Below are positions 16,608-17,674 of a DNA stretch of 64,000 bases, in pieces. This stretch comes from Shigella phage KNP5, in sequence record KX452698; one strand, written 5' to 3'. The translations under genes and the position numbers were made by a program. Numbering within the stretch: position 1 is the first letter of the stretch; every line of letters starts with the position of its first letter. The notes beneath the pieces were generated by a model. It did not search any database. It was given only the letters and a program-made list of their open reading frames with translations, and had not been told where the DNA came from.

Positions 16608-17468
16608 TTATATCGCCATCTTTCCTTTAATTGGCGGGTGAGATACATAGTTGTTAAGAACAAAATTATGCGGCTTTGCGAATTGACTCAACCAAAATAC
16701 CTGCGATTCTGTGTCCCATTCATCAAATTCATCTGGAAATTTTAATTGTAATTCGCATAAATCCATAGGTTCACGACGCAAAATTTCTTTACATTGTTCT
16801 ACGTGATTCATATAGATATGAGTATTACCACCAGAAAATATCAAATCTCCTGGAATAAGATTACACATCTTAGCTACAATATGAACTAACGTAGCATATG
16901 ATGCAATATTAAATGGAAGACCGAGGAAAACATCTACCGAACGTTGATACCACTGCAGATCCAAATAGCCATTACGCACATTAAACTGATAGAACATATG
17001 ACAAGGTGGTAATGCCATTTGCTTAAGTTCTGCCGGATTCCATGCTGAAACAATTTGACGTCTATCATTTGGCAGTTTTTTAATACGTTCAACAACTTCT
17101 ATAATTTGGTCTACGCCACCAAAATCGCGCCACTGTTTTCCATAAATTGGACCAAGTTCACCGCTATGGTATCCTAAATCTTTTGCTTGATTTTCGTAAT
17201 TTTCATCCCAGACTGTTTTGCCTTGAATTAATGAATCATGTTGAATTAATCGCAAATCATTGACATTTGTGCTTCCCGATAAAAACCATATTAGCTCAGC
17301 AATACAGGCTTTCCATGCTAATTTTTTAGTTGTTACCGCAGGAAAACCTTTAGTTAAATCCCAGCGTAATTTAGTACCAAACAAAGCAATTGTTCCTGTG
17401 CCTGTTCGGTCATCGGTTTCGTAACCATTTTCCAGGATATCTTTAATTAAAAATTGGTATTGTTTCAT
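16608..17468 (-). CDS. td: thymidylate synthase (uninterrupted)
   Basis: ATG at 17468 gives MKQYQ...; active-site region MALPPCHMFYQF; continuous ORF with no group I intron; C-terminal third diverges from T4 as recalled. Confidence 0.9.
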   Translation of the reverse strand: MKQYQFLIKDILENGYETDDRTGTGTIALFGTKLRWDLTKGFPAVTTKKLAWKACIAELIWFLSGSTNVNDLRLIQHDSLIQGKTVWDENYENQAKDLGYHSGELGPIYGKQWRDFGGVDQIIEVVERIKKLPNDRRQIVSAWNPAELKQMALPPCHMFYQFNVRNGYLDLQWYQRSVDVFLGLPFNIASYATLVHIVAKMCNLIPGDLIFSGGNTHIYMNHVEQCKEILRREPMDLCELQLKFPDEFDEWDTESQVFWLSQFAKPHNFVLNNYVSHPPIKGKMAI

Positions 17469-17674
17469 TAGTTCATCCAAGAATATGTAGAAGGATATTT
17501 AGCAAAGTTAGGCTTATATCCTAATTTAACCATTTGTTTTGCTTTGCGAGTAAATCCTAAAGAACGCTCACCTTTAAGATATTGTTTTGGTGTCATAGGC
17601 CCTTGATGCATCTGCCGACAAATAAAAAGAGCCATAGCATTAGGAACATCCTTAACTTTTAATTTATTGCTCAT
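17468..17674 (-). CDS. small basic protein coupled between frd and td
   Basis: 68-aa ORF; its ATG overlaps the frd stop (ATGA) and its TAA overlaps the td ATG (TAATG). Confidence 0.5.

Follow-up and report, generated by a model that had tools for sequence, protein, structure and literature searches.

The window analysed here comprises 64,000 nucleotides of Shigella phage KNP5 (sequence record KX452698) and, judged by its sequence, is a segment of a Tequatrovirus (T4-like) genome. Following the minus strand, we find gene 32 (19606-20514), several small frd.x ORFs, frd, an ORF of 68 codons (hereafter ORF68), td, two ORFs with DUF5496 and DUF4326, and nrdA. ORF68 occupies positions 17468..17674 of the minus strand (68 codons plus the stop), where ORF calling and translation returned exactly the protein quoted in an earlier note on this DNA, which had also placed the gene inside the nucleotide-metabolism operon, a placement that is supported by our analysis. 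Its 5′ partner in the coupled chain is frd (17671..18252, minus strand), identified as a dihydrofolate reductase gene by Pfam DHFR_1 (E 3.5e-19) and by the annotation of matching records, and its 3′ coupled partner is td (16608..17468, minus strand), an intronless thymidylate synthase gene of 286 aa (Pfam Thymidylat_synt, E 9e-94). Over the 551 bases around ORF68, identity with the window is 100% in Escherichia phage KNP1 and 96-99% in many other Tequatrovirus records. Beyond td, the DUF4326 ORF (108 aa, nrdA.1-like; 16041-16367, minus strand) and the DUF5496 ORF (91 aa, nrdA.2-like; 16321-16596, minus strand) overlap each other by 47 nt in different frames, an overlap that is likewise annotated in RB68 and T4.

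A close-up view of the two junctions confirmed the overlaps described in the earlier note. The ATG of ORF68 overlaps the TGA of frd within an ATGA (17671..17674, minus strand; junction sequence tatataaATGAgcaat), and the TAA of ORF68 overlaps the ATG of td within a TAATG (17466..17470, minus strand; junction sequence gaacTAATGaaaca). Comparison with the T4 junction revealed that the ORF is flanked by a 5-nt direct repeat, AATGA, with the left copy at 17671..17675 and the right copy at 17465..17469 (both minus strand). Moreover, a GGA at 17476..17478 (minus strand), which lies within the GGATGA of the Trp-Met codons of ORF68 and 8-10 nt 5′ of the td ATG, may serve as a weak Shine-Dalgarno-like element for td.

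Stop/start overlaps on both sides and a shared strand, as expected of a gene in a coupled operon, are thus found for ORF68, and an overlap or abutment with td also occurs in JS98, R3_1, CIP9 and 4S. Over the 18 nt 5′ of its ATG, ORF68 has the same sequence as T4 has 5′ of the td ATG, a functional initiation site; therefore, ORF68 uses an initiation site known to work for T4 td. A pattern scan gave no terminator-like or promoter-like signal between frd and the end of td, and the sigma-70-like promoter and intrinsic-terminator patterns nearest to 17468-17674 lie at 18271-18242 and 16493-16465, with none in or beside the ORF itself, in a scan of these two pattern types, which do not include the T4 middle and late promoters. 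Farther upstream, gene 32 is followed by a strong pattern of the intrinsic-terminator type (GGGGACC...GGTCCCC and a T-run), and ahead of the small frd.x ORFs stand two promoter-like sites that share one sequence (TTTACA-17-TACTAT, preceded by TG); these three sites lie at 19565-19583, 19504-19532 and 18776-18804 (minus strand). From this anatomy, the chain frd, ORF68, td would be read as part of an early/middle nucleotide-metabolism transcription unit, in which ribosomes ending at the frd TGA may restart at the overlapping ATG of ORF68, and those ending at its TAA may restart at the overlapping ATG of td. With such restarts, translation of ORF68 would be tied to that of its neighbours, and the protein would be made together with both enzymes and without a promoter or a terminator of its own.

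Sequence comparisons show that ORF68 is a genuine conserved phage gene and a member of PHROG 9550. The match to this family is full-length (residues 1-68 against profile positions 1-68 of 68; E 1.3e-45, 154.5 bits), and comparison with the orthologues of Klebsiella phage R3_1 (Marfavirus) and Enterobacter phage CIP9 (Kanagawavirus) gave dN/dS values of 0.16-0.25 at dS values of 0.75-1.6. The exact protein is found on 332 contigs, carrying the name 'hypothetical protein' almost everywhere. A word-indexed search of 5.8 billion proteins returned 19 close clusters, and about 40 with a profile, and a profile search of 1.8 billion representatives returned about 10 clusters at 50% identity; a repetitive protein of 1402 aa (P0025) in that profile search was discounted as a false positive due to low complexity. 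All homologues from the protein searches are small (66-108 aa) and lie on phage-like contigs. Over most of the family the length is 66-77 aa and both termini are conserved, with a Lys-rich N-terminus (MSNKLKV or MKGNKMKV), a central ...KKG..S[FL]GF....A..M..LGYKP... motif and an aromatic C-terminal tail. The only weak profile match within the window (E 0.11) proved to be an out-of-frame ORF inside a 310-aa gene (21858-22790), and a paralogue there was rejected. An RNA element at this position was rejected as well, the sole Rfam match in the region being a sub-threshold one to tmRNA (E 0.91).

Within Tequatrovirus, the space between frd and td is a slot with three states: it holds ORF68, it holds an unrelated ORF of 115 aa (RB32ORF229c), which is the commonest state, or it holds neither, the rarest state and the one found in T4. 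ORF68 is present in 134 of the 569 phage records matching the region (Tequatrovirus-type), and tblastn retrieved 133 records with the ORF at ≥90% identity, duplicate RefSeq and GenBank entries being included in both counts. The 115-aa ORF occupies the slot in T2, RB14, RB32, RB68 and most other Tequatrovirus genomes, with 363 records at ≥90% identity. A further 218 homologues, more distantly related, belong to other genera and without exception stand between frd and td. Neither insert is present in T4, HY03 and RB59, where frd and td overlap directly in an ATGA. The earlier note was therefore correct in placing the two T4 genes directly next to each other, and alignment of the junction with T4, T2 and RB genomes gave no homologous ORF at this place in T4 together with coding conservation of ORF68 elsewhere. 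The state of the slot differs even within one species, as in Tequatrovirus pyps2t, where the 115-aa ORF is found in KarlGJung and ORF68 in PYPS2T. For T4, the record OL964745.1 ('mutant T4 clone') was used for the junction only, where it is identical to the reference T4 AF158101; elsewhere in this record frd is split into two CDSs, the I-TevI ORF is truncated and a 1004-nt gap lies between the td exons in the alignment, and it probably contains assembly indels.

The T2/RB32 ORF resembles ORF68 in being a small and widespread gene (581 phage records) without assigned function in the same slot, flanked by short ATGA-containing direct repeats. On the other hand, the two are not homologous, and the 115-aa ORF is separated from frd and td by spacers of 20 nt and 45 nt instead of overlapping them. 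Its family has no Pfam match, and no support was found for the label 'putative homing endonuclease' that it bears in the KarlGJung record. ORF68 is also comparable to the other small ORFs of T4 nucleotide metabolism (frd.1-frd.3, nrdA.1/DUF4326 and nrdA.2/DUF5496), which are short, co-transcribed, often overlapping their neighbours by a few bases, variable among T4-like genomes and devoid of assigned function; it has no sequence similarity to any of them, and they are present in T4 whereas ORF68 is absent from it. T4-like genomes have a well-known variable periphery, and ORF68 belongs there.

Orthologues of ORF68 lie directly 5′ of td in some Dhakavirus (JS98), Marfavirus, Kanagawavirus CIP9, Serratia phage 4S and two metagenomic T4-like contigs. 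In Marfavirus (R3_1), Kanagawavirus (CIP9), 4S and both metagenomic contigs, the order is frd, one or two ORFs of the 115-aa type, ORF68 and td, and the ORF directly after frd in these tandem genomes gives the best match to the T2 ORF, with up to 44% identity (E 1e-29). Because homologues of the 115-aa ORF thus stand upstream of ORF68 in Marfavirus, Kanagawavirus and 4S, the two ORFs are neighbours and not alleles. Two diverged tandem copies of the 115-aa type occur in Marfavirus and Kanagawavirus, and in the extracted loci the ORFs of this type lie at 1701-2048 (L002, T2), 1828-2497 (L005), 1826-2504 (L009) and 2124-2504 (L008). Identities to the window in R3_1, CIP9 and 4S are 79, 69 and 62% for ORF68, 72, 75 and 76% for td, and 49, 49 and 41% for frd, so that ORF68 has diverged to an extent similar to td and keeps a higher identity than frd. 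JS98 gives a different picture, with 95-98% nucleotide identity over ORF68, mostly high identity for about 170 nt into td, and about 75% in the flanks (frd and the rest of td); the corresponding protein identities are 98.5% for ORF68, 83% for td and 76% for frd. The JS98 record (EF469154) leaves the ORF unannotated (2501-2707 of the extracted locus L010), so that frd and td stand apart by an 'intergenic' gap of 203 nt, and the records of IME339 and Klebsiella phage EI annotate no more than a fragment of 42 aa that begins with an internal Met, even if IME339 encodes the full 68 codons. The suggestion of the earlier note that ORF68 is an inserted or lineage-specific gene holds to the extent that T4 lacks it, but the gene is no novelty of this lineage, being present in about 134 of 569 Tequatrovirus-type records and in other genera.

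Outside the T4-like phages, distant homologues with 29-47% identity are found in Phapecoctavirus. One of them, gp235 of phAPEC8, lies in a long same-strand array of small genes without known function, 35 kb from the thymidylate synthase gene of that phage and on the opposite strand, and other distant homologues occur in large uncultivated phages, also amid small genes without known function. Such surroundings would agree with an early accessory character of the family. A scan of IMG/VR added eight loci only, and no neighbour is shared among the homologues outside the T4-like phages. Since the Phapecoctavirus and large-phage members lie far from td, the family is not tied to this gene outside the T4-like group.

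As for the history of the junction, the sequences themselves point to a simple way in which such cassettes may come and go. Every gene of the chain frd, ORF68, td starts with ATGA, so that each start supplies the stop codon of the preceding gene. ORF68 is flanked by the two AATGA copies in the window and the 115-aa insert by the direct repeat AAATGAAA in T2, and removal of one repeat copy with the intervening sequence gives the exact T4 junction, TATAAATGAAACAATACC. Because every gene of the chain begins with ATGA, deletion or recombination between short repeats would remove a cassette seamlessly. T4 and T2 share a td 5′ haplotype, which fits an origin of T4 from a T2-type junction, and ORF68 is linked to a different td 5′ haplotype. 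Read most simply, an older arrangement of frd, 115-aa-type ORF(s), ORF68 and td has been kept in Marfavirus, Kanagawavirus and 4S, and Tequatrovirus would have undergone differential loss, leaving ORF68 only (as in the window), the 115-aa ORF only (as in T2 and RB32) or neither (as in T4). Since other genera carry both ORFs in tandem, the adjacency of frd and td in T4 is most likely a derived deletion, and parsimony across genera suggests loss in T4 over gain in the lineage studied here. The idea of an insertion into a T4-like ground state, to which the earlier note inclined, is probably not right, direct adjacency being a minority state and probably the derived one. Loss need not have been the only process, as homologous recombination also carries ORF68 and a 5′-td block between phages, which is seen from a recent Tequatrovirus-like patch in JS98; judging from the td haplotype linkage and from this patch, Tequatrovirus could also have re-acquired ORF68 and the 5′-td block by recombination.

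A history of recent acquisition, in which Tequatrovirus started from a T4-like or T2-like junction and received the block of ORF68 (with the 5′ part of td) horizontally, by recombination with another T4-like phage, appears unlikely to us. It would account well for the linkage of ORF68 to a td 5′ haplotype unlike the one common to T4 and T2, for the JS98 patch, where the block is seen moving between genera, and for slot alleles that differ within one species, but not for the same td-proximal position in Marfavirus, Kanagawavirus, 4S and the metagenomic relatives with a divergence like that of td; neither does ORF68 bring a mobility gene, a promoter, a terminator or a target duplication beyond the 5-nt start/stop motif. 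Such a scenario bears on history only and is compatible with the nature of ORF68 as described here. Patchy genes between conserved ones are familiar in T4, where the seg and mob genes and the td intron with I-TevI have spread by recombination together with flanking sequence. ORF68 resembles these elements in its patchiness and in the co-transfer of flanks (compare the JS98 patch), and differs from them in that it is too small, lacks a GIY-YIG or HNH domain, bears no similarity to I-TevI and occurs independently of the td intron.

The window td is collinear with the two exons of T4 td, with 92.7% identity to exon 1 (nt 1-549) and 96% to exon 2 (from nt 550), and has no intron, the site equivalent to the T4 insertion falling, by alignment with T4, at td nt 549/550 (window 16920/16919, minus strand). 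A patch of about 100 nt at td nt 704-802 (window 16765-16667, minus strand; aa 235-268), some 155-250 nt downstream of the intron site, cannot be aligned at the DNA level with T4 or T2 (38-48% identity in 50-nt bins) and is 96-100% identical to RB68; therefore, two haplotypes of this surface segment exist within Tequatrovirus. The earlier note had described the C-terminal region of td as differing from T4 near the place of the T4 intron: a difference is real, as the intron is absent, but the divergent patch is a separate one, farther downstream and unrelated to it. Genomes of the ORF68 type occur both with and without the intron, and a link of ORF68 to the td intron or I-TevI was rejected. Among the phages carrying ORF68, fPS-90 and PYps14T have a full td intron, and in UPWr_E2 and BYEP01 the additional sequence within td amounts to just 260-320 bases or so, which may represent an intron lacking the I-TevI ORF.

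The product of ORF68 is a protein of 68 aa and 7.9 kDa, with a pI of 10.3 and a net charge of about +10.6 at pH 7. An AlphaFold2 model obtained with an alignment of 31 sequences (pLDDT 84.7, pTM 0.62) has helices at residues 13-24, 29-39 and 43-49; a model made from close homologues only was poor. The predicted architecture consists of three short helices preceded by a basic, Lys-rich N-terminal arm and followed by an aromatic C-terminal tail. None of the 31 family members matches Pfam at E ≤ 10, NCBIfam and PADLOC gave no match at E ≤ 1, and neither a comparison with PDB sequence profiles nor a fold comparison of the model with solved structures returned a match. The names 'flagellar biosynthesis protein' and 'DUF4858' found in some GenBank records have no Pfam or NCBIfam support, and a full-text literature search found nothing on ORF68 or PHROG 9550. 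Membership in PHROG 9550 says nothing on mechanism, the family having no assigned function, and since homology beyond it yields nothing, the function of ORF68 can be approached by inference only.

A three-helix protein with a Lys-rich arm and a charge of about +10.6 recalls the helix-turn-helix and homeodomain-like domains with a basic N-terminal arm, a likeness that extends to a conserved Gly-containing turn before the third helix, whereas the comparison of its three-helix core with solved helix-turn-helix domains gave no structural similarity. In this regard, our best guess, and a weak one, is that ORF68 encodes an early, dispensable protein whose ligand may be nucleic acid or else an acidic partner of host or phage origin, the gene being not required for frd or td function because T4 and T2 do without it. 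The binding mode itself is tentative and is rather more probably wrong than right; for nucleic acid in particular, it is the charge and the three-helix architecture of the model that would suggest it. As a whole, the reading of ORF68 as a dispensable T4-like accessory gene that lies in a coupled chain, in a variable slot, and encodes an early binding protein is one that we hold to be probable.

Two alternatives for the function stand foremost, a host-specific counter-defence role and a role tied to td. A more specific role in counter-defence or host takeover, by which the small early protein would neutralise a component of immunity or housekeeping present in some hosts only, is quite unlikely, even if it would explain the patchy distribution of ORF68 among strains, also within one species. 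The dispensability of the gene in T4 and T2, purifying selection on it, and the presence of its homologues in early arrays of small uncharacterised genes of unrelated large virulent phages of enterobacteria would all agree with such a role. It is weakened by the lack of a match to any known family or to PADLOC, whose models represent defence and not anti-defence proteins, and by a strong basic charge that is unusual for the known DNA-mimic inhibitors.

The strict adjacency to td in every T4-like genome could, alternatively, point to a function related to td rather than a generic one, in which case ORF68 would serve thymidylate synthase or the dNTP-synthetase complex as a small subunit, chaperone or regulator, or else protect the td locus. 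The ORF stands directly 5′ of td, with overlapping or abutting codons, in every T4-like genome or contig examined (eight lineages), and it moves together with the td 5′ end. Nevertheless, we regard such a role as improbable, given that T4, T2 and most Tequatrovirus have a close td (88-97% aa identity) and no ORF68, that the distant homologues are not near td (in phAPEC8, 35 kb away and on the other strand), and that ORF68 accompanies both intron-containing and intronless td, which leaves no link to I-TevI homing. Slightly more improbable is the fuller proposal of a dedicated partner of Td or of the td locus, which would modulate Td in the dNTP-synthetase complex or bind td mRNA or DNA, would have been co-inherited and co-transferred with the td 5′ end across at least five genera, and would have a three-helix fold without a detectable solved relative.

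The view that ORF68 is no gene at all, either a chance ORF or a degenerate remnant, for instance of a homing endonuclease, filling the space between frd and td, is effectively refuted: length alone cannot exclude chance, since the AT-rich window holds many spurious ORFs of 30-159 aa, and a T2-type ORF of the same slot is named 'putative homing endonuclease' in one record, but chance is excluded by purifying selection (dN/dS 0.16-0.25), by conservation at the same position in at least five genera and by the full-length PHROG match, to which the constant family length (66-77 aa over most of it, with conserved termini) and a fold predicted with confidence can be added, and a nuclease remnant (GIY-YIG, HNH or LAGLIDADG) was rejected, as profile searches gave no nuclease domain or motif and no similarity to I-TevI or to other ORFs of the window.

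Altogether, ORF68 is neither new nor specific to this phage. It is an ordinary, widespread accessory gene, which more than 100 T4-like genomes already list as a hypothetical protein, and its significance is modest, opening no long-standing question. What it does offer is a small, well-conserved and confidently folded family, with no known function or structural relative, set beside the enzymes of nucleotide synthesis. Moreover, it corrects a T4-centred expectation, since T4-like phages with directly adjacent frd and td are exceptional, and the junction is a variable slot with three states, whose cassettes may be lost or swapped seamlessly by way of their ATGA starts.
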